From NCBI GenBank assembly GCA_022711615.1, contig JAKLER010000002.1, positions 1-46,772 on the forward strand: a stretch of DNA of 46,772 nt, read 5' to 3'. The position numbers were made by a program, and so were the translations under genes. The stretch comes from Acidobacteriota bacterium. GTDB lineage: Bacteria; Acidobacteriota; Thermoanaerobaculia; UBA5066. Positions within the stretch are counted from its first letter, which is position 1. Every line of letters begins with the position of its first letter. The notes below the pieces were generated by a model that was not told the origin of the DNA, did not search any database, and saw nothing but the letters and a program-made list of their open reading frames with translations. This document shows, piece after piece, positions 143-20,665 of this stretch.

Positions 143-151
143 GGCCGGATT

Positions 152-1971: not shown

Positions 1972-2002
1972 GCGGGAGGGAGCTTACGCCAGGGCGGTCC
2001 GG

Positions 2003-2860: not shown

Positions 2861-2883
2861 CCGATAAACCTCCGGGGCAGAAG

Positions 2884-2913
2884 AGATTACATTTCCAGCG
2901 GGAGAGGTGTCAA
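2884..2913 (-). promoter_or_regulatory. candidate sigma70-type promoter upstream of rodZ-like gene (TTGACA-N18-TAATCT)
   Basis: Minus strand has TTGACA at 2913-2908, overlapping the TGA stop of the upstream gene, and TAATCT at 2889-2884. Motif match only. Confidence 0.35.
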
Positions 2914-3710: not shown

Positions 3711-3717
3711 CCGGTCA

Positions 3718-4524
3718 TTATCGGCTCGTCGCGGCGGCGAGCGCCCTCACGAGCGCCGCGGCCGCCTCGACGGGATCGGCGCCGCCACGCACGGCGTCCT
3801 CCATCGAGAGGACGACGGCGCTCCCGACGACGACTCCGTCGGCCAGGCAGGAAACCGCGGCGACCTGGGCCGGGGTCGAGATGCCGAAGCCGACGGCGAC
3901 CGGGAGCCGCCCGACTCCGTCGCGAACGCGCCCGACGAGCTCCTCGAGACCGCTCGGCACGTCGGCTCGCACGCCCGTGACGCCGGCGCGCGAGACGACG
4001 TAGACGAAGCCGCGCGAGAGCCGGCCGACCGTCTTCGCCCGCTTCGGAGGCGAGGTCGGCGCGAGGAGGAAGACCGGGTCGAGGCGCGCAGCCTTCAGCG
4101 TCGCCGCGAAGGCGGCGCCCTCCTCCGGCGGGAGGTCGGTCACGAGGGCCCCGTCGACGCCCGCGGCCGCGGCGCGCGCGGCGAACACGGCCTCGCCCAT
4201 CGAGAGGACAGGGTTCGCGTAGCCGAAGAGGACGAGGGGCACGTCGAGACCGGAGGCCCGCGACCGCGCGACGAGGTCGAGGACGGCGGAGAGGCTCGCT
4301 CCGGCCGCGAGGCCCCGCTCGCTCGCCCGCTGGATCGCGGGCCCGTCCGCGATCGGGTCGGAGAACGGCACGCCGAGCTCGATCACGTCGGCGCCGGCGG
4401 CGGCGAGGGCCGGGAGCAGACGCTCCGTGACCTCGAGCGACGGGTCGCCCGCCTCGACGAAGACGACCAGGGCGGCGCGGCCGTCGCGCGCGGCACGCGA
4501 GAAGGCCCGACCGATGCGGCTCAC
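3718..4524 (-). CDS. trpA: tryptophan synthase alpha chain
   Basis: The C-terminal 268 aa of ORF 3718..5325 read [31 protein letters not shown]...[17 protein letters not shown]... The GTG start at 4524 overlaps the trpB stop (GTGA). The upstream part of the track ORF is Arg/Pro junk. Confidence 0.93.
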
Positions 4525-5732: not shown

Positions 5733-7161
5733 CGATCCTCCCCTTCTCCGACCGGACCGCGGCGAGGAACGCCGCGAGCTTCGCTCCGTCCTTGATTCCC
5801 GGTGCGCTCTCGACGCCCGAGGCCACGTCGACGCCCGCCGGCGCGCACGCCGCGATCGCCCTCGCGACGTTCTCCGGCGAGAGCCCACCCGCGACGAAGG
5901 TCTTCTCCTTCGCCGGGAAGTGCTCGAGGAGGCTCCAGTCCCATGCGAGGCCCGTCCCTCCCGCGAGCGTCGCGTGCGCGGCGTCGAGGAGGAGGACGTC
6001 CGCGGACCACGACGCGGCCTCCTCGAGCAGGTCCCTCCCCACCCGAACGGCCTGCCACACGGGAACGGGGACGCGCAGCCCCTCCCGCGCCGCGAGGTCG
6101 TCGTGCCACTGGAGCGCGTCGGGCCGAACCGCGTCGACGATCGCTTCCGCCTCGGGCACCCTGTTCCCCGCGACCACGGCGACGACCCCCTTCGCGAAGC
6201 GGCTCGCCTCGCGAAGCGCCCGGCCGTGCGCGAGGTCGACCCGCCGCAGCGAGCGGGTCGAGAAGTTGAGACCGACCCAGTCGGCCCCCAGCTCCTCGGC
6301 CGCGGCGAGGTCCTCCTCGCGCGTCACGCCGCAGACCTTGACCTCCGTCGTTCCCTCGCCGCGCAGCGCGCGGAGCGCGCGGGCCGGGTCGCCGGAGCGC
6401 AGGAGCGACTCGCCGACGAGAAAGGCGTCGAAGCCCGAGGCCGTCAGGCGCGAGACGTCCTCGGGGCGATGGATGCCGCTCTCGGCGACGCGGACGACCG
6501 ACGGCGGCAGCAGGCTCCCCATCGCGGCGACGCGCCCGAGGTCGACGGCGAACGTCCGGAGGTCGCGCGCGTTCAGGCCGACGACCTCCGCCCCCGCGGC
6601 GAGCGCCCGGCGGACCTCCTCCTCGTCGTGCGCCTCGACGATCACCGCGAGGCCGCGCGCACGGGCAGAGAGGTGGAGCCGAACGAGCGCGTCGTCCGTC
6701 AGCGCCGCGACGATGAGGAGGACGGCGTCGGCCCCCAGCGAGAGGGCGAGGTCGAGCTGGACCTCGTCGACGACGAAGTCCTTCATCAGGACGGGGAGCC
6801 CCGAGACCCGCTTCACCTCCGGGAGCCAGGCGAGGTCGCCGCCGAAGAAGTCGGGCTCGGTGACGACCGAGATCGCGGCGGCGCCGGCCCGGCGGTAGGC
6901 CTTCGCGACGGACCGGATCGCGGGCAGGAGGTCGTCGCCGGCGCCGGAGAGCCCGGAGCTGCCTCCCGGCAGCATCGCGCCCGCCGACGGCGAGCGGTGC
7001 TTCACCTCGGCGATCACGCGCGGGCCGCCGGCGCGGAGCGCCGCGAGGAACCGTGCGCCGTCCGACGGAAGGGACGCGGTCCCGCGCGGGGCGAGCTCGC
7101 CCGCCGCGAGCCGCTTCCGGCGGGCGGCGAGGATCTCCGCGAGGATCGAGGGAACGCTCAC
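5725..7161 (-). CDS. trpCF: bifunctional indole-3-glycerol-phosphate synthase / phosphoribosylanthranilate isomerase (TrpC-TrpF fusion)
   Basis: 478 aa. The N-terminal half is IGPS-like ([13 protein letters not shown]...[11 protein letters not shown]...VEAHDEEE). The C-terminal half is PRAI-like ([12 protein letters not shown]...GADWVGLNF...LLDA...GGTG...AGGL). The GTG at 7161 overlaps the trpD stop (GTGA). Confidence 0.92.
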
Positions 7162-8210
7162 GCGGCCTCCTGCGAGATCGCCGCGAGCCTCTCGAGCGCC
7201 CGGCGCGCGGCGCCCGAGTCGATCGACGCGGCGGCGCGGGCCATCCCGTCGCCGAGGTCGAGCGCGACGCCGGAGACGAGGAGCGCCGCGGCGGCGTTCA
7301 TCAGGACGGCGTCGCGCCGCGGCCCCTCCTCGCCGTCGAGGATCGAGCGGAGGATCCCGGCGTTCGTTTCCGCGTTCCCGCCCGCCATCTCGCGCGGGTC
7401 GCGCTCGGAAAGGCCGAACGTGGCGGCCGTCCACTCCTCGAGCCGGACCTCTCCTTCCGCCACCTCGGCCACGATCGTCAGGCCGTGCGGGAGGAGCTCG
7501 TCCCCCGCGCCCGAGTTCGAGACGACGAGCGCGTGAGCCGCGCCGAGCGCCGCGAGGGCGTGCGCGAGGACCGGGACGCGGAGCGGGCGGTCGACGCCGA
7601 CGAGCTGGCGCGTCACGCCGAGCGGGTTCGCGAGCGGGCCGGCGAGGTTGAACGCCGTGCGGATGCCGAGCTCTCGGCGCATCGGCCCGACGGATCTCAT
7701 CGCCGCGTGATACGCCGGGGCAAAGAGGAACGTGACGTTCGCCTCCGCGAGCGCCCGCGCCGCGACCACCGGCGGCATGTCGATCCTCACGCCGAGAGCG
7801 GAGAGGACGTCGGCCGACCCGCTCGCCGAAGAGACGGCCCGGTTGCCGTGCTTGGCGACCGGGACGCCTGCTCCCGCGACGACGAACGCCGCCGTCGTCG
7901 AGACGTTGAACGTCCCCTGGCCGTCGCCGCCCGTCCCGCAGACGTCGACGGAGCGCGCGGCGAGCTCCTCCGCGACGGGCGGCCGGGCCGCCCGGGAGCG
8001 AAGCGCGTCGACGACGCCGGCGACCTCCTCCGGCCCCTCCCCGCGCCGCGCCATCGCCGCGAGGAGCGCCGCGGCGCGAACCTGCGAGAAGCTCTCCCCG
8101 AGCATCTCGTCGACGGCGAGGCGCGCCTCCTCCCGCGAGAGCGTCCGCCCTTCCATGACGAGCTTCAGCGCGCGGTGGAGGTCGCCCGCGCCCGGCGCGG
8201 GGAGGCTCAC
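7158..8210 (-). CDS. trpD: anthranilate phosphoribosyltransferase
   Basis: 350-aa ORF with the motifs VDVCGTGGDGQGTFNVST...VAKHGNRAVSSASGSADVLSALG. The GTG start overlaps the trpG stop. Confidence 0.95.
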   Translation of the reverse strand: MSLPAPGAGDLHRALKLVMEGRTLSREEARLAVDEMLGESFSQVRAAALLAAMARRGEGPEEVAGVVDALRSRAARPPVAEELAARSVDVCGTGGDGQGTFNVSTTAAFVVAGAGVPVAKHGNRAVSSASGSADVLSALGVRIDMPPVVAARALAEANVTFLFAPAYHAAMRSVGPMRRELGIRTAFNLAGPLANPLGVTRQLVGVDRPLRVPVLAHALAALGAAHALVVSNSGAGDELLPHGLTIVAEVAEGEVRLEEWTAATFGLSERDPREMAGGNAETNAGILRSILDGEEGPRRDAVLMNAAAALLVSGVALDLGDGMARAAASIDSGAARRALERLAAISQEAA

Positions 8211-8776
8211 GACGCGCCCTTCTCGACGAAGTTCCGGAGGAGCCGCTCCCCTTCCAGCGTGAGGATCGACTCGGGGTGGAACTGGACGCCGACGAGAGGG
8301 AGCGAGCGGTGGCGAAGCCCCATGACGACCCCGTCCGACGTCTCCGCCGTGATCGCGAGACAGTGCGGGACCGTCGGCCGGTCGACGACGAGGGAGTGGT
8401 AGCGCGTCGCGACGAACGGGTTCCCGAGGCCCGCGTAGATCCCCTCCCCGTCGTGGCGGATCTCGGAAGTCTTCCCGTGCATCAGGACGGGCGCCCTCGC
8501 GATGGACGCGCCGAAGACGTGCCCGATCGCCTGGTGCCCGAGGCAGACGCCGAGGAGCGGGACCTCCTCGTTGCGCCGGATCAGCTCCTCGCTGATCCCC
8601 GCGTCCTCGGGGCGCCCCGGCCCGGGCGAGATCACGATCCGCGCCGGCTTCAGCGCGAGCGCTTCCGTGGCCGTCATCGCGTCGTTCCGGACGACGCGGA
8701 CCTCGGGGTGGAGCGTCTGGAGGACCTGGACGAGGTTGAAGGTGAACGAGTCGTAGTTGTCGACGACGAGGATCAC
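8207..8776 (-). CDS. trpG: anthranilate synthase component II (glutamine amidotransferase, TrpG/PabA type)
   Basis: 189 aa reading VILVVDNYDSFTFNLVQ...GVCLGHQAIG...QFHPES. The GTG at 8776 overlaps the trpE stop (GTGA). Confidence 0.93.
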   Translation of the reverse strand: MILVVDNYDSFTFNLVQVLQTLHPEVRVVRNDAMTATEALALKPARIVISPGPGRPEDAGISEELIRRNEEVPLLGVCLGHQAIGHVFGASIARAPVLMHGKTSEIRHDGEGIYAGLGNPFVATRYHSLVVDRPTVPHCLAITAETSDGVVMGLRHRSLPLVGVQFHPESILTLEGERLLRNFVEKGAS

Positions 8777-10164
8777 GGCTCGTACTCCTTCGCCGCGTCG
8801 ACGGCGCGCATGAGCGCCCACGCCTTGCTCTCGCACTCGTCCGCCTCGGCCTCCGGGCGCGAGTCGGCGACGATGCCGGCGCCGGCCTGGACGTGGAGGA
8901 CGCCGTCCTTCACGACCGCCGTCCGGATGCCGATCGCCATGTCGAGGTGCCCCGCGAAGTCGAGGTAGCCGACCGCGCCGCCGTAGGCGCCGCGCCGCAC
9001 CGGCTCGAGCTCCTCGATGACCTCCATCGCCCGGATCTTCGGGGCGCCCGTGAGCGTCCCCGCCGGGAAGGTCGCGCCGAGGGCGTCGACCGCGTCCTTG
9101 CCTTCGGCGAGGCGTCCGGTGACGCGCGTCGCGAGGTGCATGACGTGCGAGAAGCGCTCGACGGTGAAGAAGTCGCGGACCTTCACCGTCCCCGGCGCGG
9201 CGACCCGGCCGAGGTCGTTCCGGCCCAGGTCGACGAGCATCACGTGCTCGGCTCGCTCCTTCTCGTCGGCGAGCAGCTCGCGCGCGAGGGCGAGGTCCTC
9301 CTCCGGGGTCGCGCCGCGCCGGCGCGTTCCGGCGAGCGGGATCGTCTCGACGTCGTCGTCCCCCGCGCGGACGAGCCTCTCCGGGGAGGCTCCGAAGATC
9401 ACGGCGTCGGGGGTCCGGAGGTAGTACTGGTAGGGCGACGGGCTGACGCGCCGCAGGGCGCGGTAGATCGAGAAGGGGTCCCCCTCGATCGGCGCCGACC
9501 AGCGGCGCGAGAGGACGACCTGGAAGACGTCGCCCGCGCGGATGTGCTCCTTCGCCCGCTCGACGCGGTCCACGTAGGCCTTCCGGGGGAGCGTCTCCTC
9601 CCACGGGCCCGCGAGGCGCGCGGGCCGCCCGCCGTGAGGCCGGCCGGCGTCGACGCGCGCGGCGAGCGTTGCGAGCCGGGTGCGGACGGCCGCCTCCTCG
9701 CCGGGCCGGGCGTTGCCGAGGAAGAGGAGACGATGCCTCACGTGGTCGAACGCGAGGACCGTCTCGAAGACCCCGAACCAGGCGTCCGGCAGGCCGACGA
9801 CGTCGGGGTTCGTCGACGGGAGGCGCTCGAGCCGCCGCACCGCGTCGTACCCGGCGAAGCCGACCGCCCCGCCGATGAACGGCGGCAGGTCGTCGCCGAA
9901 GCCGTCGGAGGCGGGGAGCGCGCGCGTCTCCGAGCGGACGACGCCGCGGAGGAGGGTGAACGGGTCGCCCTCGGCGCCGCTGAAGGAGCGCTCCGGGGCA
10001 GTCCCGAGGAACGACCAGCGTGCGACGCGCTCTCCGCCCTCGACCGACTCGAGGAGGAAGCAGGGCTCGTCGTCCGAGAGGAGCGTCCGCATCACGGCGA
10101 CCGGCGTCGTCAGGTCGGCCGGCCTCTCGAGGACGACGAGCGTCCGGGCTTCGTTCTTCGCCAT
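8773..10164 (-). CDS. trpE: anthranilate synthase component I
   Basis: 463 aa reading [11 protein letters not shown]...CFLLESVEGGE...FPAGTLTGAPKIRAMEVIEELE...RGAYGGAVGY. ATG at 10164 is preceded by GGAGGAG. Overlap with the hisF-IE stop is 1 nt (TGATG). Confidence 0.95.
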   Translation of the reverse strand: MAKNEARTLVVLERPADLTTPVAVMRTLLSDDEPCFLLESVEGGERVARWSFLGTAPERSFSGAEGDPFTLLRGVVRSETRALPASDGFGDDLPPFIGGAVGFAGYDAVRRLERLPSTNPDVVGLPDAWFGVFETVLAFDHVRHRLLFLGNARPGEEAAVRTRLATLAARVDAGRPHGGRPARLAGPWEETLPRKAYVDRVERAKEHIRAGDVFQVVLSRRWSAPIEGDPFSIYRALRRVSPSPYQYYLRTPDAVIFGASPERLVRAGDDDVETIPLAGTRRRGATPEEDLALARELLADEKERAEHVMLVDLGRNDLGRVAAPGTVKVRDFFTVERFSHVMHLATRVTGRLAEGKDAVDALGATFPAGTLTGAPKIRAMEVIEELEPVRRGAYGGAVGYLDFAGHLDMAIGIRTAVVKDGVLHVQAGAGIVADSRPEAEADECESKAWALMRAVDAAKEYEP

Positions 10165-11618
10165 CACTTCTCCTCCCGGCGCACCCCGCGCCGTGCCGCC
10201 AGCTCCGCCGCGACCGCCTCGGGGGAGAGCCCCCGGGCGGCCATCAGGACGACGACGTGATACATCAGGTCGGCGACTTCCGCCGCGAGTCCCGCGTCGT
10301 CGCGCGAGACCGCCGCGAGGGCCACCTCGACCCCCTCCTCCCCGACCTTCTGCGCGCACTTCCCGATCCCCTTCTCGAGAAGACGGTTCGTGTACGAGCC
10401 CGGCTCGGGACGCGCCTTCCGCGCCGCCACGACGTCGAAGAGGGGACCCAGGCCGAACGGGTCGGCGCCGGACGCCTCGGCGCTCGCGCCGTTCACCGTC
10501 GCGGGGAGGGCGACCCGCGCCGCCGCGTCCGACGGGATCGCCGATATCGGCGAGAAGCAGCTCGCGGCCCCGGTGTGGCAGGCCGGCCCCGATGGCTCGA
10601 CGTCGTAGAGGACGGCGTCGCGGTCGCAGTCGAGGAAGACGCGGACGACGCGCTGGACGTTCCCCGAGGTCTCCCCCTTCTTCCAGAGCGAGCGGCGCGA
10701 GCGGCTGAAGAGGTGCGTCTGCCGCGTCTCGACGGTGAGCGCGAGGGCCTCGTCGTTCGCCCAGGCGAGCGTCAGCACCTCGCCCGTGCCGGCGTTCCTC
10801 ACGACGACGGGGACGAGGCCGCGCTCGTCGTACGCGACCTCCTCGAGGCCCGCGGGGACCGCGGGGCGGACCGGGACGCCCGCCTTCGCCATCGCCCGCT
10901 TCACCATTCCGACGCTGAAGACCCGGTCGTGGAAGACCGACGCCGCGAGGACGGCGTCGGCGCCCCCCTCGAGGACCGCCGGCGCGAAGTGCGCGAGCTC
11001 CCCCGCGCCGCCCGACGCCACGATCGGAAGCGTCGTGGCCGCGCGGGCCGCCTTCAGCATCGCGACGTCGAAGCCCGCCTTCGTCCCGTCGGCGTCCATC
11101 GAGGTGAGGAGGATCTCCCCCGCCCCGCGGGCCGTCACCTCGGCGACCCAGGCGGGAAGCCCGATCTCGGTCAGCCTCCGCCCGCCGTGCGTCGAGACGA
11201 CGAAGCCCTCGCCCGCCCGCTTCGCGTCGACGGCGACGACGACGCACTGCGCGCCGAAGCGCTCCGCGAGGCGCGTCACGAGCGCGGGGTCGAGGACGGC
11301 CGCGGTGTTCACGGTAACGCGGTCGGCCCCCGCCGAGAGGAGCACGCCGGCGTCCTCGACGGAGCGGACGCCGCCGCCGACGGTGAAGGGGATCGCGAGG
11401 ACGTCGGCGACGCGGCGGACGAGGTCCACGAGCGTCCCGCGCCCCTCGTGCGAGGCGGCGACGTCGAGGAAGCAGAGCTCGTCGGCCCCCTCGGCCTCGT
11501 AGCGGCGCGCGGCCTCGACGGGGTCTCCCGCGTCGCGCAGGTTCTCGAACCTCAGCCCCTTGACGACGCGTCCTTCCGCCACGTCGAGGCACGGGATCAC
11601 CCTCGCGGCGAGGCTCAT
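10164..11618 (-). CDS. hisF-hisIE: trifunctional fusion: imidazole glycerol phosphate synthase cyclase subunit (HisF) + phosphoribosyl-AMP cyclohydrolase (HisI) + phosphoribosyl-ATP pyrophosphatase (HisE)
   Basis: 484 aa in one uninterrupted frame. Residues 1-245 are HisF (VIPCLDV..., TVGGGV..., ASGGAG...VF). Residues about 262-370 are HisI (LVPVVV...[10 protein letters not shown]...DCDRDAVLY...GPACHTG). The C-terminus is HisE (YTNRLLEKG...KVGEEGVE...[13 protein letters not shown]). There is no stop or start codon at the junction (10830-10885). The ATG at 11618 overlaps the hisA stop (ATGA). Confidence 0.88.
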
Positions 11619-12361
11619 CGCGTTCCCTCCCCGAGCGCGGCGCGGGCCGCAGCGAGCCGGGCGACCGTCGTCGCCCCGCCGTGCAGCGCCCGGCCGAAGA
11701 TCGCCCCCGCGGGGCCGCCCGCGAGGGCGGCGGCGACCGGGGCGAGGTCCTCCTCGCCGCGCATCCCGCCCGAGGCGAGGAGCTCGCCCGGGAAGTCGGC
11801 CCGGACCGCGGCGAGGAGGTCGAGGTTCGGGCCCGTCATCGCGCCGTCGCGCGCGACGTCGGTGACGAGGAGAGACCGGACCCCCTCCGCCGCGAGGCGG
11901 GCCGCGACCGTGGCCGCGTCTCCCGCCCCGGCGTCCTCCACCCAGCCGTGGACCGTCGGCCGCCCCTCCCGGCAGTCGAGGGCGACGACGAGGCGCTCGG
12001 CGAACTCGGCAAGGAGAGCTGCGAAGAGCGCCGGGTCGCGGAACGGGAGGCTCCCGAGGACGACGCGGGAGACGCCCGAGGCGAGCGCCGCCTCGACGCC
12101 CGCGCCGTCGCGCAGGCCGCCGCCGACCTCGACGGGGACGGTCGAGGCCGCGACGATCTCCGCGATCGAAGGAGCATTCGACCCCGTGCCGAAGGCGGCG
12201 TCGAGGTCGACGACGTGGATCCCGTCGGCCCCTTCCCTCGCGAAGCGGACGGCGACCTCGACGGCGCGCTCCGGGTAGACCGTCCTCTGCGACGGGTCGC
12301 CGTGGAGGAGGCGGACGACCTTCCCGCCCATCAGGTCGATCGCGGGCCAGAGGTCGATCAC
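11615..12361 (-). CDS. hisA: 1-(5-phosphoribosyl)-5-[(5-phosphoribosylamino)methylideneamino]imidazole-4-carboxamide isomerase
   Basis: 248 aa reading [18 protein letters not shown]...VVDLDAA...VEVGGGLR...GAIFGRAL. The GTG at 12361 overlaps the hisH stop (GTGA). Confidence 0.92.
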
Positions 12362-12975
12362 GCGGCCTCCGCGAGGAAGTTCGCGAGGATCCGCCGCCCG
12401 GCGGCTGACGACTTCTCGGGGTGGAACTGGCAGCCCCAGACGTTGCCGCGGCGGGCCGCGGCGACGAAGCGGCCGCCGTGGTCGCAGAACGCCGCGACGT
12501 CGGCCGGGTCGGCCCCCTCGGGGCGGAACGAGTGGACGAAGTAGACGTACGTCCCGCGGGGCAGTCCCGCGAGGAGCGGCCCCTCCGCCGCGCCCTCGGT
12601 CTCGAGCCGGTTCCATCCGACGTGCGGGACGCGGACGCTCGAAGGGAAGGGGACGACGCGCCCCGGGAGGAGGCCGAGGCCCTCGGTCGTCCCGAACTCC
12701 TCGCTCGCCTCGAAGAGGAGCTGGAAGCCGAGGCAGAGGCCGAGGAGGCGCGCGCCATGGCCGACGGCGGCGCGGAGCCCTTCCTCGAGGCCCGACGACG
12801 CGAGCCGCGCACGGGCCGGGGCGAAGGCGCCGACGCCCGGGAGGACGACACGGGACGACTGCGCGACGAGGGCGGGGTCGGAGGTCGTCGCGACCTCCGC
12901 TCCGAGCCGCTCGAACGCCCGGCGGACCGAGCCGACGTTCCCGACGCCGGTGTCGAGGATCGCGACGCGCGTCAT
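12358..12975 (-). CDS. hisH: imidazole glycerol phosphate synthase, glutamine amidotransferase subunit
   Basis: 205-aa ORF reading [14 protein letters not shown]...LPGVGAF...GLCLGFQLL...VPHVGWN...FVHSF...QFHPEKS. Confidence 0.95.
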
Positions 12976-13568
12976 GCCGTGAGCGTCCCCTTCGTCGAGA
13001 GGACCGTCGCCTCTCCGAGCGCGACGGCCTGGCGCAGGGCGCGGGCCGTCGCCTTGAAGACGGCCTCTGCGGCGTGGTGGGCGTTCCGGCCGCGAATGAC
13101 GTCGACGTGGAGGTTCAGCTTCCCGCGGAACGCGACCGACTTCCAGAACTCCTCGACGAGGGCGAACGGGAACTCCTTCGTCACGAACTGGAGCTCCGGC
13201 GTCGAGGGGGCCTCGAAGACGACGTAGGGGCGCCCCGAGAGGTCGACGACGCTTCGGGCGAGGGCCTCGTCGAGAGGCACGTAAGAGTGCCCGAAGCGGG
13301 CGATCCCCAGGCGGTCGCCGAGCGCCCTGTCGAGCGCCTCGCCGAGAGCGAGGCCGACGTCCTCGACCGTGTGGTGCGCGTCGACGTGGACGTCTCCCGT
13401 CGCGTCCACGGCGAGGTCGAAGCGGGCGTGCTTCGCCACGGTCTCGAGCATGTGCGTCAGGAACCCGACCGGAGTCGAGACCCGCGCCTCGCCCATTCCG
13501 TCGACGTCGAGCGCGAGGGCGATCGACGTCTCCTTCGTCGTCCGGTTCACCTCGGCGGTGCGGCTCAC
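12972..13568 (-). CDS. hisB: imidazoleglycerol-phosphate dehydratase (monofunctional)
   Basis: 198 aa reading RTTKETSI...GFLTHMLE...DAHHTVEDVGLALG...GRNAHHAAEAVFKA. The GTG at 13568 overlaps the hisC stop. Confidence 0.93.
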   Translation of the reverse strand: MSRTAEVNRTTKETSIALALDVDGMGEARVSTPVGFLTHMLETVAKHARFDLAVDATGDVHVDAHHTVEDVGLALGEALDRALGDRLGIARFGHSYVPLDEALARSVVDLSGRPYVVFEAPSTPELQFVTKEFPFALVEEFWKSVAFRGKLNLHVDVIRGRNAHHAAEAVFKATARALRQAVALGEATVLSTKGTLTA

Positions 13569-14638
13569 AGGACCTCCTTCAGGGTCGCGAGGAAGAGGTC
13601 GTTCTCCTCCGGCGTCCCGATCGAGACGCGCAGCGCGCCCGGCGGGGCGGCCGACAGGTCGCGGACGAGGACCCCGCGGGCGCGAAGGCCGGCGTAGACG
13701 CGCGCGGCGTCTCCGCCCGGCGGGTCGAAGAAGAGGAAGTTCGCGCGCGACGGCGCGACTTTCGCGCCGAGCGCGCCAAGCGCCGCGGCGACCCGCTCGC
13801 GCTCCACGGCGATCGCCCGGCACCGGGCGCGAACCTCTTCGCGCCCCGCAAGGGCCGCGAGGGCGATCTCCTCGGCGCCGACGTCGACGCTGAAGGGGAG
13901 GATCGCCTTGCCGATCTCCTCCGCGACGTCGGGCCGGGCGGCCGCGTACCCGACGCGGAGCCCCGCCACGGAGTAGGCCTTCGACAGCGTCCGGAAGATC
14001 ACGAGGTTCGGAAGCTCGGGGAGGATCGGGAGGAGGTCGTCCGCCTCGTCGGCGAAGTCGACGTAGGCCTGGTCGACGAGGACGACGCCGGCGACCGCGC
14101 AGAGGCGACGGACGAAGTCGCGCGAGACGACGCCGCCCGTCGGGTTGTTCGGCGAGCAGAGGAGCGGGACGGTCCTCTCCCCCTTCGCAGCGGCAGCGAG
14201 GAAGGCCTCCTCGTCGAGGCGGAAATCGTCTCCGACGAGCGGGACGGTCGCGACCTTCGCCCCGACGATCGCCGCCATCTGGACGTAGAGCGAGAAGACG
14301 GGCGGGGCGAGGAGGAGCGTCCCGCCGCAGCCGGCGAAGACGGAGAGCGCGGCGAGGATCGCCTCCCCGGAGCCGTTCGAGGGGACGACCTGCTCCGGAG
14401 GGAGGCCAGCGTTCGCGGCGAGCGCGGCGCGCAGCCGGGGCGCCCCGACCTCCGGGTAGAGGGCAAAGCGCCGGGCGCCGAGCGCCGCGAGCGCGGCGGC
14501 CTTCGCTGGCGCCGGGACGTCGACGGGGCTCTCGTTGAAATCGAGCTTCGCGCGGACGTCCGCCTGGCCCGGCTCGAAGCGATAAGCGCGGAGGGCGCGG
14601 ATCTCGGGCCGCACGGCTGCGAGAGGGTCGCGGGTCAT
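13565..14638 (-). CDS. hisC: histidinol-phosphate aminotransferase
   Basis: 357-aa ORF with class-II aminotransferase features (LDFNESP...NGSGEAI...SPNNPTG...RTLSKAYSVAGLRVGY). The ATG overlaps the hisD stop (ATGA). Confidence 0.93.
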   Translation of the reverse strand: MTRDPLAAVRPEIRALRAYRFEPGQADVRAKLDFNESPVDVPAPAKAAALAALGARRFALYPEVGAPRLRAALAANAGLPPEQVVPSNGSGEAILAALSVFAGCGGTLLLAPPVFSLYVQMAAIVGAKVATVPLVGDDFRLDEEAFLAAAAKGERTVPLLCSPNNPTGGVVSRDFVRRLCAVAGVVLVDQAYVDFADEADDLLPILPELPNLVIFRTLSKAYSVAGLRVGYAAARPDVAEEIGKAILPFSVDVGAEEIALAALAGREEVRARCRAIAVERERVAAALGALGAKVAPSRANFLFFDPPGGDAARVYAGLRARGVLVRDLSAAPPGALRVSIGTPEENDLFLATLKEVL

Positions 14639-15957
14639 CGATCGGCCCTCCGAGCCTGCCCCCGTTCGGCGCGCGCTCTTCCGAGGGGGCTGCCGGCCCT
14701 CAGGTCGAGCGAGCGCGCGTGCGCCTCGAGCCCCTCGAAGCGCGCGAGCGTCGCCGCGGCGGGACCGAGGCGCCTCGCGGCGGCGGGCGGGACGGAGACG
14801 CTCCGTCCCCAGCGGAGGAAGTCGCGGACGGAGAGCCCCGAGAAGCTGCGTGCCGCGCCGCCCGTCGGCAGAACGTGGTTCGGGCCGGCGAGGTAGTCGC
14901 CGAAGGCGGTCGGCGTGCCGTCGCCGACGAAGACGGCGCCAGAGGTCGCGGCGAACCGGGCCGCGTACCCCTCGGCGGCCCGCCCCATCAGCTCGACGTG
15001 CTCGGCCGCGAGGGGGACTCCGGCACGGGCAGCCGCTTCGAGCGTCGGAAAGACGAGGGCGAAGCCGTTCGCCGCGAGAGAGGCCCTCGCCGTCCCGGCC
15101 GTCGGGAGCTCCCGAATCTGCCGCTCGACCTCCTTCGCCGTCGCGACGGCGAGGTCGCGCCGGTCGGTGAAGAGGAGGCAGACGGCGTCGGGGTCGTGCT
15201 CGGCCTGGGCGAGGAGGTCGGCCGCCACGAGCGCCGGGTCGGCACCCGTCGTCGCGAGGACGAGGACCTCGGACGGTCCCGCGGGCATGTCGACGGAGAC
15301 GACGCCGGAGACGAGGTGCTTGGCCGCGGCGACCCAGCGGTTCCCCGGGCCGACGACCTTCGTGCAGCCGGCGACGGAGGCGAGCCCGGCGATTCCGTGC
15401 GCGCCCCCCGCGAGGAGGACGGCGTCGACGCCGAGCTCCCCGAGCGCCCAGCGCAGCTCGCGGCTCCCGCGGAACGCGCGCGGCGGCGTCGCGACCACGA
15501 TCCGCTTCACGCCCGCAACGCGCGCCGGGACGACGCCCATCAGGAGCGACGACGGGTAGAACGCGCGCCCGCCCGGGACGTAGACGCCGACGGCCTCGTG
15601 CGGCACCGGCGTCTCGGCGAACGAGACGCCGAGGGCGTCGCGGAAGGCGAAGCCCTTCGGCAGCTGCCGGCGGTGATACGCCTCGAGCCTCCTCCGCGCG
15701 AGGCGGAAGGCCGCGGCGAACGCCGGATCGACCTCCTTCTCGCGGGCCGGACGGACGAGGAGCCCCTTCGCCGGGGTCGCCTCGCCGTCGAGGTCGCGGA
15801 CGAATCCGGCGAGCGCGGGCGCGCCGCCCGAGAGGACCGCCTCGACGATCGGCAGCGCCTCGCGGAGCGTCGCGAAGTCGGGCGCGGAGCGGCGGGCGGA
15901 GAGGCGCGCGAGGAGCGCCCTCCCCTCGCGTCCGTTCGCGGCGACGACCCTCAGCAC
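14635..15957 (-). CDS. hisD: histidinol dehydrogenase
   Basis: 440-aa ORF reading VGVYVPGG...YPSS...GPGNRWV...AGPSEVLV...LAQAEHD...GDY.AGPNHVLPT. The GTG start overlaps the hisZG stop by 7 nt. Confidence 0.93.
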   Translation of the reverse strand: MLRVVAANGREGRALLARLSARRSAPDFATLREALPIVEAVLSGGAPALAGFVRDLDGEATPAKGLLVRPAREKEVDPAFAAAFRLARRRLEAYHRRQLPKGFAFRDALGVSFAETPVPHEAVGVYVPGGRAFYPSSLLMGVVPARVAGVKRIVVATPPRAFRGSRELRWALGELGVDAVLLAGGAHGIAGLASVAGCTKVVGPGNRWVAAAKHLVSGVVSVDMPAGPSEVLVLATTGADPALVAADLLAQAEHDPDAVCLLFTDRRDLAVATAKEVERQIRELPTAGTARASLAANGFALVFPTLEAAARAGVPLAAEHVELMGRAAEGYAARFAATSGAVFVGDGTPTAFGDYLAGPNHVLPTGGAARSFSGLSVRDFLRWGRSVSVPPAAARRLGPAAATLARFEGLEAHARSLDLRAGSPLGRARAERGQARRADR

Positions 15958-17579
15958 GGACTCTCCACCTTCGCCGCGAGGCGCGAGACGAGCGAGGCGA
16001 CCTCGGCGCGGCGCTCGACGAGCGCCCGCGGCCCGACGACGAACGTCGCGCGGCTCGGAAGGATCGTCTCGATCTCGGCGAGGCCGTGCGCCGCCATCGT
16101 CGAGCCGGTCTCGATCAGGTCGACGACGACGTCGGCGAGCCGCAGCGCGACCGCGAGCTCGACGGAGCCGGCGAGCGGGACGACCTCGTGCGGGATCTTC
16201 CGGCCGTCGAAGAAGCGCGCCGCGAGCCTCCGGTACTTCGTCCCGACGCGGACGGGGTGCCCGTTCGGACGGAACTCCTCTCCCGCGCGCCCGATAAGCG
16301 AGAGGCGGCAGGCGCCGTACGGCAGCTCGAGCGGCTCGCAGACCTCCTCGCCCGACTCCCCGATCCGGTCGCTCCCGACGACGCCCGCGTCGGCGCCGCC
16401 GAACGCGACGTACGTAGGGACGTCGTCGTCCTTGAGGAGGAGGAGCTCGAAGCGGCCGCTCCGGTCGGGAAGGAGAAGCCGCCGGCCGTCCCCTTCGGGG
16501 AAGTCGACCCCCGCGGCCCGGAGGAGATCGAGCGTCTTCCCGAGGAGGCGCCCCTTCCCGGTCGCGATCCGGAACGGGCGGGGCGCGGCCGGCGCCTCCT
16601 CCGCCGCCTCCGCCGCCGAGGCGAGCGCCTCGAGGCCGACGCAGAAGCCTACGGCCGGGGCCGGCGGCCCGAAGCGGCCGAGGAGGCCGTCGTAGCGGCC
16701 GCCGGCGGCGAGGCTGCCGCCCCCTCCCGCCGCGTCGAGCGCGAACGTCAGGCCTGTGTAGTAGGGCGCGGCGGGGGTCCCGGCGAGATCGACGACGACC
16801 CCGAGCTCCGGCCGGTCCTCCCGCGCGGCCCGCGCGGCGGCCGCGAGGGAGCGCGCCGCCTCGGCGAGCACGGGGAGGCGGAAGAGAGCCGACTCCGGGT
16901 CGAACCCCGCGAGGAGGGCCGCGCCGACCTCGTCGGCCGCGGCCGGGGTCGCGCCCGCCGCCCGAAGCCTCTCGGAGAGCTTTCCGACGCGGCGCGCCCG
17001 GGCGTCGGCGAGGGCCGCGTCGAGCGTGCTCCGCTTGCGGGCGACGAGGCCCGGGGCGACGGCGGAGAGGAGCGCCGGCAGGAGCCCCGCCCAGCCGAGC
17101 GTCAGGACGAGGCGGGTCGCGGGAATCCCGTCCGCGGCGCCCAGGAGCGTCCGGAGCATCCGCAGGTCGGCTTCGAACGAGGGGTCGCCGTAGAGCTCGG
17201 CCCCGACCTGCGCGAACTCGCGAGGCCGGCCGACGCCGGACGGCTCGTCGCGGACGACGTCGCCGCGGTAGAAGAGCGCGACCGGCATCGGGAGCCCCGC
17301 GAGGCGCGGCGCGACGACGCGCGCCGCCATCGGGGTGAAGTCGGCGCGGAGGGCGAGGAGCTCTCCCCCGCGGTCGACGAAGCGGTAGAGCCGCTCGTCC
17401 CCCTCGGCCGTGACACCGTCGTACGGGGCGGAGAAGTCGAGGACCGGCAGGACCGTCTCGCGGAAACCGGCGTCGGCGAGGACGCGGACGACGGAGTCCT
17501 CGAGCCTTCGGCGGCGTTCGGCGGATTCGAAGAGGAGGGCCTGGACGCCCCGCGGCAGGTTCGGGGAGGGAACGCTCAT
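15951..17579 (-). CDS. hisZ-hisG: fusion of ATP phosphoribosyltransferase regulatory subunit (HisZ, HisRS paralog) and short-form catalytic subunit (HisG-S)
   Basis: 542 aa in one frame. Residues 1-320 are HisZ-like (GVQALLFESAERRR..LYRFVDRGGELLALRADFT...LFYRG.V.R...REF.Q.G.E.YG...GGRYD.L). An Ala/Glu/Pro linker follows (AEAAEEAPAAPRP, about 16574-16625). Then comes HisG-S (FRIATGKGRLLGKTLDLL...DDDVPTYVAFGGADAGVVGSD...CRLSL...VGTKY.RLA..FF...LAGSVELA...LADVVVDLIETGSTM). The ATG at 17579 overlaps the aroDE stop (ATGA). Confidence 0.88.
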   Translation of the reverse strand: MSVPSPNLPRGVQALLFESAERRRRLEDSVVRVLADAGFRETVLPVLDFSAPYDGVTAEGDERLYRFVDRGGELLALRADFTPMAARVVAPRLAGLPMPVALFYRGDVVRDEPSGVGRPREFAQVGAELYGDPSFEADLRMLRTLLGAADGIPATRLVLTLGWAGLLPALLSAVAPGLVARKRSTLDAALADARARRVGKLSERLRAAGATPAAADEVGAALLAGFDPESALFRLPVLAEAARSLAAAARAAREDRPELGVVVDLAGTPAAPYYTGLTFALDAAGGGGSLAAGGRYDGLLGRFGPPAPAVGFCVGLEALASAAEAAEEAPAAPRPFRIATGKGRLLGKTLDLLRAAGVDFPEGDGRRLLLPDRSGRFELLLLKDDDVPTYVAFGGADAGVVGSDRIGESGEEVCEPLELPYGACRLSLIGRAGEEFRPNGHPVRVGTKYRRLAARFFDGRKIPHEVVPLAGSVELAVALRLADVVVDLIETGSTMAAHGLAEIETILPSRATFVVGPRALVERRAEVASLVSRLAAKVESPC

Positions 17580-19069
17580 CGGGAGACCTCGAAGAGGGCG
17601 GAGATGCGTGAAGGGAGACGCGCGGCGAGCGATTCCGCGGTCGCCGCGCGTCCCGTGAACAGCGCCGACTGCCCCGCGGCCTGCGCGAGGAGGAGCGTGA
17701 AGCCGTCGACGAGGCGGGAGCCGTTTCGGAGCGCGAGCCGCGCGAAGGCCGTCCCTCCCGGGCGATAGGGGGCGTCGACCGCGAGGACGCCCGGGCCGAG
17801 GAACGTGCCAGGGCACGGGAGCGAGTCCTCGACGTCGAGGCCGAGCGGGGTCGCGTTGACGATGGCCGAATAGGCGACGCCGGCGCTCGCCGGGCTCGCG
17901 ACGACCCGCGCCCCGCAGGACGCGGCGATCGCCGCCGCGCGCGCGGCCGTCCGGGCCGCGAGGTCGACGCGCCACCCCCGCGCGACGAGCGCCTCGACGG
18001 CCGAGCGCGCCATGCCGCCCGCGCCGAGGACGAGCGCGGCGCCGTCCTCGGGCGCCTCGGGGATCGCGGCGAGGAGCGCGTCTCGGTCGGTGTTCGCGGA
18101 CGCGACCGCGCCGTCCTCGCCGAAGAGGAGCGTGTTGCGCGCCTCGCCCGGCGCGCCCGCGACCGCGGCGGCCTCTTCCTTGAACGGCACGGTCACAGAG
18201 GCGCCGCGGAGCGGAAGGCCGAGCTCGTCGCACGCCTCGCGCAGCGGTCCGATCTCCGTCGCGAGCGAGGAGAGGGCGACCGGAGCGTAGAGGGACGAGA
18301 GCCCGAGCTCCTCGAACCGGGCGTTGTGGATCGCCGGGGAGAGGGAGTGGGAGACCCGACCGCCGAGGAGGGCGAAGAGAGCCTCGACGCGGCGGGAGCG
18401 GCCGACGCCGTAGACGTCGAGGAGGTCGGCGGCCGGAAGCTGTCCCGGCGCCGTCGCCTCGGGCGCGAGGGCCGCGCCGAAGGAGAGGGAGGCGCCGAGG
18501 TACGGCGAGAGGGCGCGCGTGACGAGCCCGGCTTCGCCCATGCCGAACGCCGCGAGGCGCCCCTCTCGCCCGCGCGCGGCCTGGAGCCGCAGGAGCCGCA
18601 GCGCGTCGCCGAGTCCCGCCGCCGCGACGACGAGCTTGGCGAAGCGGGCGCCCGTCGCCTCGAGGCGCGCGGCGCGCTCCTCGAGGTCGTCCGGCGTCCG
18701 CTCGAAGGCGTGCGACGAGACGACGACCCTCTCCCGCGGGAGGCCGAGAAGGCCGGCGCCGCCGAGCTGGAGCTCGACGTCGACCAGGTCGAACCCGGCG
18801 TCGAGCGCGGCGCCAAGGAGGGCGGAGGCCTCGGAGGCCGTCCCGCCGAACCGCCCTCCCTCGGCGCGGGACCGGAGCGTCGCGAGGAGCGTCCGCCCGG
18901 CGAAGGCGGCGCGCAGGGCCGGAAGCTCCGGCGCCTCCTCGAGCGCGTCGAGCCTCAGCTCGACCGCGGGGAGGCGCGGGTCGAGGAACGGCGCCGCCGC
19001 CGCGAGCGTCGCGTTCGTCGGCCGGCCGGCCGAGGCGACGAGGAGCGTCTTATCCGCGGTGAGAGCCAA
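17576..19069 (-). CDS. aroD-aroE: bifunctional 3-dehydroquinate dehydratase (type I) / shikimate 5-dehydrogenase (AroD-AroE fusion)
   Basis: 497-aa ORF. The N-terminal half is type-I DHQase-like (VELRLDAL...VVSSHAFERTP...AKLVV). The C-terminal half is AroE-like (LGGRVSHSLSPAIHNARF...GASVTVPFK...NTD...VLGAGGMARS...NATPLG). The only available start is TTG at 19069, which lies inside the terminator U-tract with the SD-like GAGGGGG in the terminator 3' arm, so the start is uncertain. Confidence 0.85.
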   Translation of the reverse strand: MALTADKTLLVASAGRPTNATLAAAAPFLDPRLPAVELRLDALEEAPELPALRAAFAGRTLLATLRSRAEGGRFGGTASEASALLGAALDAGFDLVDVELQLGGAGLLGLPRERVVVSSHAFERTPDDLEERAARLEATGARFAKLVVAAAGLGDALRLLRLQAARGREGRLAAFGMGEAGLVTRALSPYLGASLSFGAALAPEATAPGQLPAADLLDVYGVGRSRRVEALFALLGGRVSHSLSPAIHNARFEELGLSSLYAPVALSSLATEIGPLREACDELGLPLRGASVTVPFKEEAAAVAGAPGEARNTLLFGEDGAVASANTDRDALLAAIPEAPEDGAALVLGAGGMARSAVEALVARGWRVDLAARTAARAAAIAASCGARVVASPASAGVAYSAIVNATPLGLDVEDSLPCPGTFLGPGVLAVDAPYRPGGTAFARLALRNGSRLVDGFTLLLAQAAGQSALFTGRAATAESLAARLPSRISALFEVSR

Positions 19070-19098
19070 AACGAAACCCCCTCGGTCGTCCGAGGGGG
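19068..19098 (-). terminator. intrinsic terminator of the leader (attenuator terminator): CCCCCTCGG-ACGA-CCGAGGGGG + UUUCGUUUU
   Basis: Read directly on the minus strand. A perfect 9-bp GC-rich stem (19098-19090 / 19085-19077) with a 4-nt loop is followed by TTTCGTTTT (19076-19068). It sits immediately 5' of the first operon cistron. Confidence 0.8.
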
Positions 19099-19172
19099 TC
19101 TCTGCGGTTCTTCTTCTCTACCCCGCGCCCTCGGACGACTCACGTCCGACGAGCGTGTGGCGCTCGCCGTCG
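19085..19172 (-). promoter_or_regulatory. attenuator alternative-structure region (helices A and B, plus a 12-bp antiterminator competing with the terminator)
   Basis: Three pairings on the minus strand. Helix A is CGACGGCGAGCG/CGCTCGTCG (19172-19147) and abuts the leader stop codon. Helix B is TCGGACG/CGTCCGA (19149-19131). GTCGTCCGAGGG (19139-19128) is the exact reverse complement of CCCTCGGACGAC (19096-19085), which is the terminator 5' arm plus loop. Confidence 0.7.
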
Positions 19173-19214
19173 CTATGCGTGATGCCAGTGCCAGAGGACC
19201 GGGGCGAACGTCAT
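19173..19214 (-). CDS. putative 13-aa leader peptide MTFAPVLWHWHHA (Trp/His regulatory codons)
   Basis: ATG ACG TTC GCC CCG GTC CTC TGG CAC TGG CAT CAC GCA TAG on the minus strand. The same residues form the tail of the junk ORF 19173..20759. There is no SD, but the ATG lies 9 nt after a candidate -10 box, so the transcript may be leaderless. Confidence 0.65.
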   Translation of the reverse strand: MTFAPVLWHWHHA

Positions 19215-19223
19215 CGGGGGCGG

Positions 19224-19253
19224 ATAGTGGGGGAAGGCCCCGGACCCTGTCAA
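19224..19253 (-). promoter_or_regulatory. candidate sigma70-type promoter of the leader/aro-his-trp operon (TTGACA-N18-CACTAT)
   Basis: Minus strand has TTGACA at 19253-19248, containing the cysS TGA stop, and CACTAT at 19229-19224. The leader ATG is at 19214. Motif match only. Confidence 0.45.
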
Positions 19254-20665
19254 CTCTTCCGCCGCCAGCGGACCCCCTGCGGGGTGTCCTCGAGGAGGAT
19301 CCCGCGGGCGGCGAGCTCGTCGCGGATCGCGTCGGAGGCGGCGAAGTCGCGCCGCTTCCGGGCGTCCTGCCGGGCCGCGATCTTCGCCTCGACCTCGGCC
19401 TCGAGCGAGGCGTCCTCCGCCGGGGCGAGGACGCCGAGGACGCCGTCGACCTCCCGGAGGAGGGCGCGCGCCGCCGCCGCGTCGGCCGGGTCGAGCTGCC
19501 CCCCCTCGAGCGCGGTGTTCGCCTCTTTCACGAACGCGAAGAGGGCGCCGAGGGAGGCCGCGCTGTTGAGGTCGTCCTCCCACGCGGCCCGCACGGAGCG
19601 TCGAGCCTCCTCGACGCGCCCGCGGAACGCCTCGGAGGCGCCGTCCGCGCCGGCCGCGCCGGCCCGCTCGCCGAGCCGCGTCTCGAGCGACTCGAGCCGC
19701 TCGAGGGCCGAGACGGCGCCGCGCAGGGCGTCGAACGTGAAGTTCAGCTTCTGGCGGTACGGCACCGACAGGAGGAGGTAGCGGACCGCGCGCGGCGAGA
19801 AGCCGCGGGCGAGGACGTCGGGAAGCGTGTAGAAGTTCCCCTTCGACTTCGCCATCTTCTCGCCGTCGACGATGAGGTGCTCGGCGTGGAGCCAGAAGCG
19901 GACGAAGGTCTTGCCCGTCGCTCCTTCGCTCTGCGCGACCTCGTTCTCGTGGTGCGGGAAGACGTTGTCGACGGCCCCGGTGTGGATGTCGAGCGTCTCG
20001 CCGAGGTACTTCATCGACATCGCCGAGCACTCGAGGTGCCAGCCGGGCCGCCCCTTCCCGAGCTCGGTCTCCCAGAGGGCCGACTCGGGCTCTCCCTCCT
20101 TCGCCCCCTTCCAGACGGCGAAGTCTCGGACGTCCTCCTTCTCGTACTCGTCGTCGGCGACGCGCGCGCCGCGCTTCATCGAGGAGAGGTCGACGCGCGA
20201 GAGCTTCCCGTACGAGGGGAACGAGGCGATCCGGAACCAGATCGAGCCGTCGCTCTCGTAGGTGTGCCCGCGCTCCGTCAGCTTCTTCACGATCTCGACC
20301 ATCTCGGGGACGTGGTCCGTCGCGCGCGGGTAGACCGCGGCCGGGATCACGTTGAGCGTCTTCAGGTCCTCGAAGAACGTCGCGATGTGCCGGTCGGTGA
20401 AATCGCGGAGCGGGAGCCCCTCGGCGATCGCGCCGCGGATCGTCTTGTCGTCGATGTCCGTCAGGTTCATCACCTGGGTCACGTCGAAGCCGAGGCTCCG
20501 GAAGGCCCGGCACATCACGTCCTCCCAGACGAACGTCCGGAGGTTCCCGATGTGGACCCGGTTGTAGACCGTCGGGCCGCAGGTGTAGAGGCCGATCTTG
20601 CCGGGGCGGAGTGGCTCGAAATCGACCAGGGAACGGGCCGCAGTATCGAAAAGGCGCAGGCTCAC
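19250..20665 (-). CDS. cysS: cysteine--tRNA ligase
   Basis: 471-aa ORF reading LYTCGPTVYNRVHIGNLR (HIGH motif)...KMAKSKGN (KMSKS motif). GTG start with GGAGAA 9 nt upstream. Confidence 0.95.
   Translation of the reverse strand: MSLRLFDTAARSLVDFEPLRPGKIGLYTCGPTVYNRVHIGNLRTFVWEDVMCRAFRSLGFDVTQVMNLTDIDDKTIRGAIAEGLPLRDFTDRHIATFFEDLKTLNVIPAAVYPRATDHVPEMVEIVKKLTERGHTYESDGSIWFRIASFPSYGKLSRVDLSSMKRGARVADDEYEKEDVRDFAVWKGAKEGEPESALWETELGKGRPGWHLECSAMSMKYLGETLDIHTGAVDNVFPHHENEVAQSEGATGKTFVRFWLHAEHLIVDGEKMAKSKGNFYTLPDVLARGFSPRAVRYLLLSVPYRQKLNFTFDALRGAVSALERLESLETRLGERAGAAGADGASEAFRGRVEEARRSVRAAWEDDLNSAASLGALFAFVKEANTALEGGQLDPADAAAARALLREVDGVLGVLAPAEDASLEAEVEAKIAARQDARKRRDFAASDAIRDELAARGILLEDTPQGVRWRRKS

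Follow-up and report, generated by a model that had tools for sequence, protein, structure and literature searches.

A predicted Trp/His leader-peptide attenuator ahead of the aroDE-his-trp operon in Thermoanaerobaculia (Acidobacteriota)

Introduction

Can one leader peptide that contains both tryptophan and histidine codons control an operon that contains the genes of both pathways? The question is raised by contig JAKLER010000002.1 of the Acidobacteriota assembly GCA_022711615.1 (Thermoanaerobaculia), from which a stretch of 46,772 nucleotides (nt), in the following called the window, was analysed. On its minus strand, between cysS (identified by Pfam tRNA-synt_1e) and an operon of shikimate, histidine and tryptophan genes that begins with an aroD-aroE fusion (aroDE), a first-pass annotation made from the DNA letters had noticed a short open reading frame (ORF) rich in Trp and His codons and, downstream of it, RNA segments with more than one pairing partner. 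It had interpreted the whole as a mixed Trp/His transcription attenuator. We come to the same conclusion and put its probability at about 0.8: the element is predicted to be a ribosome-mediated leader-peptide attenuator by which transcription of the aroDE-his-trp operon would respond to shortage of Trp and of His.

The conclusion is carried by the conservation of the element in 71 of 71 loci, by covariation in its helices and by the contrast with outgroup operons. One part of the earlier interpretation fell away, namely the strict W-H-W-H-H alternation of the codons, in the place of which the relatives have the core W-H-x-H-H.

A putative leader peptide with Trp and His codons

Re-reading of the minus strand confirmed the leader ORF, ATG ACG TTC GCC CCG GTC CTC TGG CAC TGG CAT CAC GCA TAG, together with its W-H-W-H-H codons (for the coordinates see Table 1). 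The distance from the cysS stop codon (TGA, 19252-19250) to the leader ATG had been given as 36 nt; we count 35 nt.

Comparison of the region between cysS and aroDE in relatives had been proposed as a check. For this 80 genome loci and 80 metagenome loci were fetched via AroDE homologues, which were found under the labels Thermoanaerobaculia or Holophagales (Acidobacteriota). The element is present in every locus that has upstream DNA and an AroDE at least about 50% identical (70 loci plus the window), with a conserved W/H ORF and with compensatory changes in the helices (see below); three further loci, cut at the 5′ end, gave partial matches to the covariance model. An intact leader ORF lies in the same place in 71/71 loci. 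It is 9-14 codons long, mostly 11-13, and ends about 100 nt ahead of aroDE. Variants of the peptide among relatives are MIFVARHWHVHHS, MTSASRHWHSHHT, MFSASRHWHAHHA, MLARHWHGHHT, MTLVARSWHWHHG and MFLTSWHWHWHHG. All leader-bearing loci have the gene order cysS-leader-aroDE-hisZG-hisD.

The core of the peptide is x-W-H-x-H-H-x-stop, often with an H before the W. Counted back from the stop codon, position -7 is H in 41 of the 71 loci, -6 is W in 69, -5 is H in 67, -3 is H in 67 (CAT in 37, CAC in 30) and -2 is H in 70; position -4 (W10 in the window) is W in 26 loci and otherwise V, S, G, A, H or P, and position -1 is variable. The stop codon, fixed in its position, is TGA in 32 loci, TAG in 26 and TAA in 13. 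No copy has fewer than one Trp and two His codons, and in 60/71 loci these two amino acids account for five of the last seven sense codons. The numbers of Trp and His codons in these seven are one and four in 36 loci, two and three in 24, one and three in 8, two and two in 2, and two and four in 1. Thus the mixed Trp and His content is universal, conservation does not extend to the window's second Trp, and the W-H-W-H-H alternation is specific to the clade. Reading frame, W/H identity and adjacency to the stop codon have been kept while synonymous and non-W/H positions drifted, as is predicted for selection on translated regulatory codons.

Two of the leader-bearing loci are peculiar. In L097 (1352-1510) the leader is shortened to MASRSWHWHS and the loop region of the first helix has an insertion of about 17 nt, the other elements being kept. 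L045 bears the label Acidithiobacillales, probably through an error in binning.

How would such a short ORF be expressed? A TTGAC(A/T) box stands upstream in 69/69 loci with upstream DNA, 33 nt (61 loci) or 30 nt (8 loci) from the leader start codon. At the -10-like position, behind an 18-nt spacer, the window has CACTAT and related loci have CAGAAT, TCCAAT, TCTACT or TTCAAT. From the geometry of the boxes and the ATG, transcription would start at the leader AUG or 1-3 nt before it. The 9 nt ahead of the start codon are C-rich and contain no Shine-Dalgarno sequence, and 66 of the 69 loci have ATG as the leader start codon, although aroDE uses TTG. Promoter geometry, ATG preference and the missing Shine-Dalgarno sequence together suggest that the ORF is probably translated as a leaderless message. 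In none of the relatives examined is the leader ORF annotated; the public gene calls leave the gap between cysS and aroDE empty (L161, 9822-10001; L162, 9832-10001).

Four mutually exclusive helices

Downstream of the ORF five segments form four mutually exclusive helices: helix A (1:2), helix B (2:3), the antiterminator (3:4) and the terminator (4:5). Most of what the first-pass annotation had seen here could be read again, with two corrections of extent. Segment 1, the 5′ arm of helix A, does begin at the base right after the leader stop codon. The 7-bp core of helix B stood, and the 3-nt overlap with helix A became larger: in its extended form, the anti-antiterminator, helix B has positions 19148-19154 in common with helix A, i.e. 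nearly the whole 3′ arm of the latter. The DNA 12-mer GTCGTCCGAGGG in segment 3 is, as claimed, the exact reverse complement of 19096-19085, which is the 5′ arm plus loop of the terminator; the window has 2 matches, compared with 0.11 expected by chance. The antiterminator is thus a perfect 12-bp duplex in the window, with about -26 to -28 kcal/mol, and encloses a spacer (19126-19104) whose sequence is not conserved beyond the window's clade. Terminator hairpin and U-tract were found by the terminator scan as well, the stem having 13 bp in the scan rather than the 9 bp given earlier, and together they are a predicted intrinsic terminator. In positions 1-20000 of the window the hairpin is the sole strong terminator-like site, the other three candidates being 6-bp stems at chance rate.

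Compared with dinucleotide shuffles the full leader folds with z = -4.6, and with z = -5.0 when the ORF is omitted. In the window the sum of helix A and antiterminator (-43 kcal/mol) nearly equals that of helix B and terminator (-44 kcal/mol). Masking of the 5′ arm of helix A moves the balance by about 15 kcal/mol toward termination, because the antiterminator alone (-28 kcal/mol) loses to helix B plus terminator (-44 kcal/mol).

Alignment of the leaders with MAFFT followed by RNAalifold gave almost no consensus structure, because the register shifts between clades; it was replaced by alignment to a covariance model and by alignment-free tests. The covariance model was built from helix A and terminator only, and 68 distinct sequences were realigned with it.

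In this alignment 84% of the cells of helix A and terminator are paired and 17 of the 23 pairs have changed on both sides (10/11 in helix A and 7/12 in the terminator, the latter being 91% paired). Doubly changed cells number 104, compared with 28.8 in shuffles, none of 500 of which reached 104, and with 6-39 in slid controls. The related loci have a U-rich tract behind the hairpin as well. The extended helix B (alignment columns 61-76 with 86-98) is paired in 86% of the cells, with compensatory columns such as CG in 49 sequences and UA in 18, or GC in 18 and CG in 17. For the antiterminator (columns 86-104 with 122-141), to which the alignment had not been fitted, 71% of the cells are paired and 58 are doubly changed, compared with 31 in shuffles.

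The alignment-free tests point in the same direction. The duplex of segment 3 with the terminator 5′ arm has a median z of -2.4 against shuffles across the family. When segments were swapped between sequences, the cognate partner was preferred over non-cognate ones by 3.4 kcal/mol for the antiterminator, 3.35 for helix A, 3.5 for the terminator and 1.85 for helix B, and in controls with unrelated segments by 0.4-0.6 kcal/mol. The loop of the terminator is not constrained by the terminator stem, yet the antiterminator pairs all of its bases in 51/67 sequences (paired fraction 0.89, versus 0.61 with foreign loops). As duplexes the four helices are similarly stable, with about -21 to -24 kcal/mol.

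Table 1. Elements of the leader and genes of the operon, in positions of the window.
Feature	Positions	Strand	Details
-35-like box TTGACA	19253-19248	minus	overlaps cysS stop TGA 19250-19252
-10-like box CACTAT	19229-19224	minus	18 nt past -35 box, 9 nt ahead of leader ATG
Leader ORF	19214-19173 (ATG to TAG)	minus	13 codons + TAG, encodes MTFAPVLWHWHHA; read from sequence
Candidate regulatory codons W8 H9 W10 H11 H12	19193-19179	minus	UGG CAC UGG CAU CAC
Helix A (1:2)	19172-19147	minus	5′ arm 19172-19161, loop 19160-19156, 3′ arm 19155-19147; -15.0 kcal/mol folded alone
Helix B, core	19149-19143 with 19137-19131	minus	UCGGACG with CGUCCGA; read from sequence
Helix B, extended, anti-antiterminator (2:3)	19154-19127	minus	GCUC-g-UCGGACG 19154-19143 with CGUCCGA-GGGC 19137-19127; -18.7 kcal/mol
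Antiterminator 5′ strand (segment 3), GUCGUCCGAGGG	19139-19128	minus	pairs with 19096-19085
Spacer with small hairpin	19126-19104	minus	GCGG 19126-19123 with CCGC 19107-19104; minimum free energy (MFE) folds
Terminator hairpin (4:5)	19102-19073	minus	13 bp, loop ACGA, -25.4 kcal/mol; terminator scan
Shine-Dalgarno-like GAGGGGG for aroDE	19083-19077	minus	inside terminator 3′ arm; putative role
U-tract UUUCGUUUU	19076-19068	minus	sequence and terminator scan
aroD-aroE fusion, first gene of operon	19069-17576	minus	Pfam DHquinase_I + Shikimate_dh_N
hisZ-hisG, hisD, hisC, hisB, hisH, hisA, hisF-hisIE, trpE, trpG, trpD, trpC-trpF, trpB, trpA	17579-3718, gene boundaries approximate	minus	Pfam

Where the ribosome would stand and which fold would be made

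The helices suggest the following sequence of events. When Trp-tRNA or His-tRNA is scarce, the ribosome would stall on the W/H codons with its 3′ edge short of segment 1. With the ribosome at W8 to H11, helix A would form and sequester segment 2, so that segment 3 would stay free and could pair with the emerging 5′ arm and loop of the terminator; the terminator would be blocked and RNA polymerase would read into aroDE. Having formed first, the fold of helix A plus antiterminator could persist, and it would leave the putative aroDE Shine-Dalgarno sequence in the terminator 3′ arm exposed. When both tRNAs are charged, the ribosome would reach the stop codon and cover segment 1, segments 2 and 3 would pair to helix B, the terminator would form and transcription would end at the U-tract. 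The conserved geometry is compatible with this: no base separates the stop codon from the 5′ arm of helix A, and the W/H codons, which fill the 15-18 nt ahead of the last sense codon, are 4-18 nt upstream of the stop codon.

The first-pass annotation had left open how the position of the ribosome determines the fold, and masked folding, the means it had suggested, gave an answer: a stall at W8 to H11 is predicted to keep helix A, which would allow read-through, and a ribosome at the stop codon to melt it, which would lead to termination. The ribosome was placed with a W codon in its A site or at the stop codon, for 8 representatives and then for 68 sequences. Before the terminator 3′ arm was made, the stall at W gave helix A plus antiterminator in 8/8 representatives, and the ribosome at the stop codon gave helix B. 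On emergence of the terminator 3′ arm the gain in energy was -8.0 kcal/mol for a stalled ribosome and -16.2 kcal/mol for one at the stop codon, and the direction of this difference was the same in 66/68 sequences. At equilibrium the terminator probability changed from below 0.5 (stall at W) to above 0.5 (stop) in 22/68 sequences, with 0 flips in reverse. It rises in a sharp step as soon as the ribosome reaches into the 5′ arm of helix A with its 3′ edge, so that the number of effective stall sites depends on the assumed reach of the ribosome: with +9, +12 and +15 nt these are the first five, four and three positions, respectively, of W-H-x-H-H.

A different arrangement would be that of trpL of Escherichia coli, with three helices. 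Segment 1 would then be the leader ORF, with the antiterminator strand as its partner; a ribosome stalled on the ORF would mask it and thereby set this strand free, and helix A would be a mere spacer or pause hairpin. The full-length MFE fold of the window does pair the ORF (GCCCCGGUCCUC...) with GAGGGCGCGGGG, helix A being enclosed, and in the window's clade the pairing of ORF and segment 3 beats dinucleotide shuffles with z of -0.7 to -3.4. Outside this clade it is at chance (the family median z is about -0.55, with many positive values), and neither arm of helix A nor segment 3 is a conserved partner of the 18-nt W/H codon stretch (z about 0), whereas helices A and B are conserved family-wide. 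Pairing of ORF and segment 3 was rejected as the mechanism of the family, being significant in the window's clade only, and we regard the trpL-type arrangement as improbable. In that clade the pairing may add a further layer, in which lack of translation leads to termination.

Codons 4-7 of the leader in the window (19205-19194) are complementary to GAGGGCGCGGGGU (19131-19120), which adjoins the antiterminator strand; the other clades do not have this complementarity.

Several observations weigh against the attenuator with four helices as set out above. If the ribosome reaches +12 to +15 nt ahead, stalling at the final His codon or the final two already has the effect of a ribosome at the stop codon. 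In the window's own clade the masked folds fail to flip: equilibrium folding yields the terminator whichever ribosome mask is applied (probability about 1.0), and therefore the switch would have to be kinetic there. Whatever the mask, segment 3 is for the most part bound up in the helix B core until the terminator 5′ arm appears, and the masks differ little in this. Since most clades have one Trp codon, the response to Trp may be weaker than that to His. For antiterminator and helix B the number of doubly changing pairs is not above that in shuffles and column-wise covariation is modest, partly because clades differ in register within the alignment. Owing to the phylogenetic relatedness of the sequences, shuffle counts and Wilcoxon p-values overstate significance; all of the sequences come from uncultured metagenome-assembled genomes. 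Finally, a strict sigma-70 scan did not call TTGACA-18-CACTAT, because CACTAT matches 3/6 positions of TATAAT, and the case for the promoter is its conservation. With these points taken into account, the specific chain of four helices, as modelled by the masked folds, still has somewhat more for it than against it.

The start of the operon

Pfam confirms the earlier reading of a fused aro-his-trp operon: the order is aroDE-hisZG-D-C-B-H-A-F/IE-trpE-G-D-CF-B-A, all on the minus strand. As far as the fetched DNA reaches, trpE-trpG-trpD come after the his genes in two distant clades as well (about 52% AroDE identity), mostly with 4-nt overlaps. Such overlaps between genes in relatives suggest translational coupling along all 14 genes. 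The operon is also unusually rich in fusions (aroD-aroE, hisZ-hisG, hisF-hisIE and trpC-trpF).

The start codon of aroDE, TTG at 19069-19067, sits within the U-tract. It is the only plausible start, there being no alternative in-frame ATG, GTG or TTG ahead of the conserved DHquinase N-terminus. Most AroDE homologues have 497 amino acids and the N-terminus MALTAEK, and this TTG is also where independent gene calls begin the gene in two distant relatives. Therefore there is no room for a promoter between hairpin and operon, and all transcripts of aroDE must cross the hairpin.

This position of the start codon decides against the simplest explanation, that the hairpin merely terminates cysS and that the short ORF is there by chance. 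The hairpin does lie about 150 nt past the cysS stop codon, after which there is no other terminator. With the aroDE start inside the U-tract the operon promoter must, however, be upstream of the hairpin, and ORF, frame and W/H codons have been kept in all loci over a range of AroDE identity down to about 50%, as have the antiterminator and helix B. The chance that this explanation is correct is very small.

The same position raises the question whether the hairpin acts on translation. Its 3′ arm contains GAGGGGG, directly followed by the TTG, and in all loci GGAGG or GAGGG is found in this arm. Hence the hairpin could mainly hide the Shine-Dalgarno sequence and start codon of aroDE, with little real termination. 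However, where the DNA has about 63-72% G+C, a GC-rich stem of 9-13 bp with a conserved U-rich tract behind it is the signature of an intrinsic terminator, and hiding of the start is compatible with termination; dual control is likely and already part of the explanation that we favour. Control of translation only is quite improbable. As a part of the attenuator, judging from a layout conserved in all relatives, the same hairpin could also block initiation at aroDE on read-through transcripts that have refolded.

Related operons without the his genes

More distant AroDE (32-40% identical) were found in Vicinamibacterales, in other Acidobacteriota and in some bins labelled Planctomycetota. These outgroup loci have no cysS, almost none has hisZG, and they have no W-H-x-H-H ORF. 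In 56 of them trpE directly follows aroDE, without his genes in between, and trpG comes next wherever the fetched DNA extends that far. A different short ORF stands upstream of aroDE in 59/72 outgroup loci (L053-L080, L104-L160), with the core Y-W-W-W-Y, Phe codons upstream of it and no run of His codons; examples are MPRFFSPFVSPAFASYWWWYGTVTEGAACGV and ...AWWYWSTPEEAIALA. In L064 (2709-2880) an ORF of this type is followed by CCTCTTC-N13-GAAGAGG-CTTTTTTCTTTT, i.e. by a hairpin and a U-tract. From these sequences the Y-W-W-W-Y leaders look like a second, aromatic (Trp/Tyr/Phe) family of attenuators. The W/H covariance model gave no matches on 84 outgroup loci; the Y-W-W-W-Y elements are therefore not detectable members of the same RNA family.

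His codons thus occur in the leader exactly where the his pathway occurs in the operon, which is the strongest indirect evidence that the W/H codons are functional sensors. It also bears on the idea that W-H-x-H-H is a nascent-chain arrest peptide which, in the manner of TnaC, senses a free amino acid or another ligand rather than the charging of tRNA. In favour of this idea, the motif is conserved at the amino-acid level and stands immediately before the stop codon. Known arrest peptides need longer conserved contacts with the exit tunnel, and this one has only 9-14 residues, of which those other than W/H, position -4 and the last one among them, vary freely. Its W/H content matches the products of the operon and is replaced by Y/W/F where the his genes are absent. 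An arrest peptide is very unlikely.

The findings can be combined to a scenario for which we see an even chance. The element would be an undescribed RNA family of the Thermoanaerobaculia, a leaderless attenuator with two inputs (Trp or His). An ancestral acidobacterial aroDE-trp operon with a Trp/Tyr/Phe leader would have gained the whole his pathway between aroDE and trpE, and its leader His codons alongside Trp. The hairpin would be both the terminator and the sequestrator of the aroDE ribosome-binding site, so that one ribosome-sensed switch would gate read-through into, and translation of, the 14-gene operon, whose genes are largely coupled by overlaps.

Comparison with known systems

In Rfam no family matched anywhere in the window at the gathering score, and with E up to 10 the region 19000-19300 gave unrelated matches at chance level, the best being the rnk leader with E = 0.46. 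Full-text searches of literature outside subscription journals, which covered Trp plus His leaders, acidobacterial attenuators and his-trp supraoperons, found neither a leader with Trp and His codons nor attenuators of this lineage, in agreement with the first-pass annotation, which had known of no such attenuator. In the one searched paper that touches on this point (PMC2965389), hardly any of the attenuators predicted in Acidobacteriota are said to have an assigned function. The mechanism is a classical one; its Trp plus His version appears to be undescribed.

If correct, the prediction extends classical leader-peptide attenuation to the Acidobacteriota and provides a natural example of regulatory codons that track the content of an operon, W/H on aroDE-his-trp versus Y/W/F on aroDE-trpEG. 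One sensor would couple the genes of histidine, tryptophan and the shikimate trunk (cross-pathway control): His starvation would induce trp, and Trp starvation his. The covariance model could be used to annotate the element in metagenomes, where gene callers miss the ORF, and a topology in which the sensor codons precede the first of four helices that compete with one another could be useful for modelling and engineering of attenuators.

The leaders of T-box riboswitches measure at least about 200 nt and contain a specifier loop as well as the conserved T-box sequence. A T-box was rejected for this locus: Rfam gave no T-box match, and from the leader stop codon to aroDE there are only about 100 nt.

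The aromatic supraoperon of Bacillus subtilis, aroFBH-trpEDCFBA-hisC-tyrA-aroE, is regulated by TRAP, which binds (G/U)AG repeats in the leader, and contains from the his pathway only hisC. As in the operon described here, aromatic, trp and his-related genes are united under attenuation by a leader RNA. Here, in contrast, the whole his pathway is embedded, and the TRAP protein is replaced by predicted leader-peptide control.

Leaderless leader ORFs have been documented in Deinococcus deserti (PMC4007540) and leaderless polycysteine short ORFs in mycobacteria (bioRxiv 10.1101/834739). With these the W/H ORF would share a start at or near the 5′ end of the transcript without a Shine-Dalgarno sequence, here deduced from the geometry of promoter and ATG and from the preference for ATG; the amino-acid specificity is different.

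The closest parallels in mechanism are trpL and hisL of E. coli and Salmonella, which have a short ORF with codons for the end product and mutually exclusive terminator and antiterminator, the position of the ribosome selecting the fold such that starvation leads to read-through; for the element described here the same is predicted. Homology in sequence or structure to these leaders (Rfam Trp_leader and His_leader) is, however, not seen, no Rfam family being matched. One leader combines two unrelated amino acids, the regulatory codons lie upstream of the first helix rather than inside it, and the alternative helices number four, not three; what would discriminate between the folds is the covering of segment 1 by a ribosome at the stop codon. 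A Shine-Dalgarno sequence is missing from the ORF, which is probably leaderless, and the host phylum is Acidobacteriota. Mixed codons, with relief of termination by shortage of any of the amino acids, are known from thrL (Thr and Ile) and from ilvL and ivbL (Ile, Leu and Val), in which one branched pathway makes all the amino acids concerned; Trp and His, by contrast, are products of separate pathways that are united here in one fused operon. Unlike in the classical leaders and in those of thr and ilv, the terminator overlaps with the first gene's ribosome-binding site and start codon.

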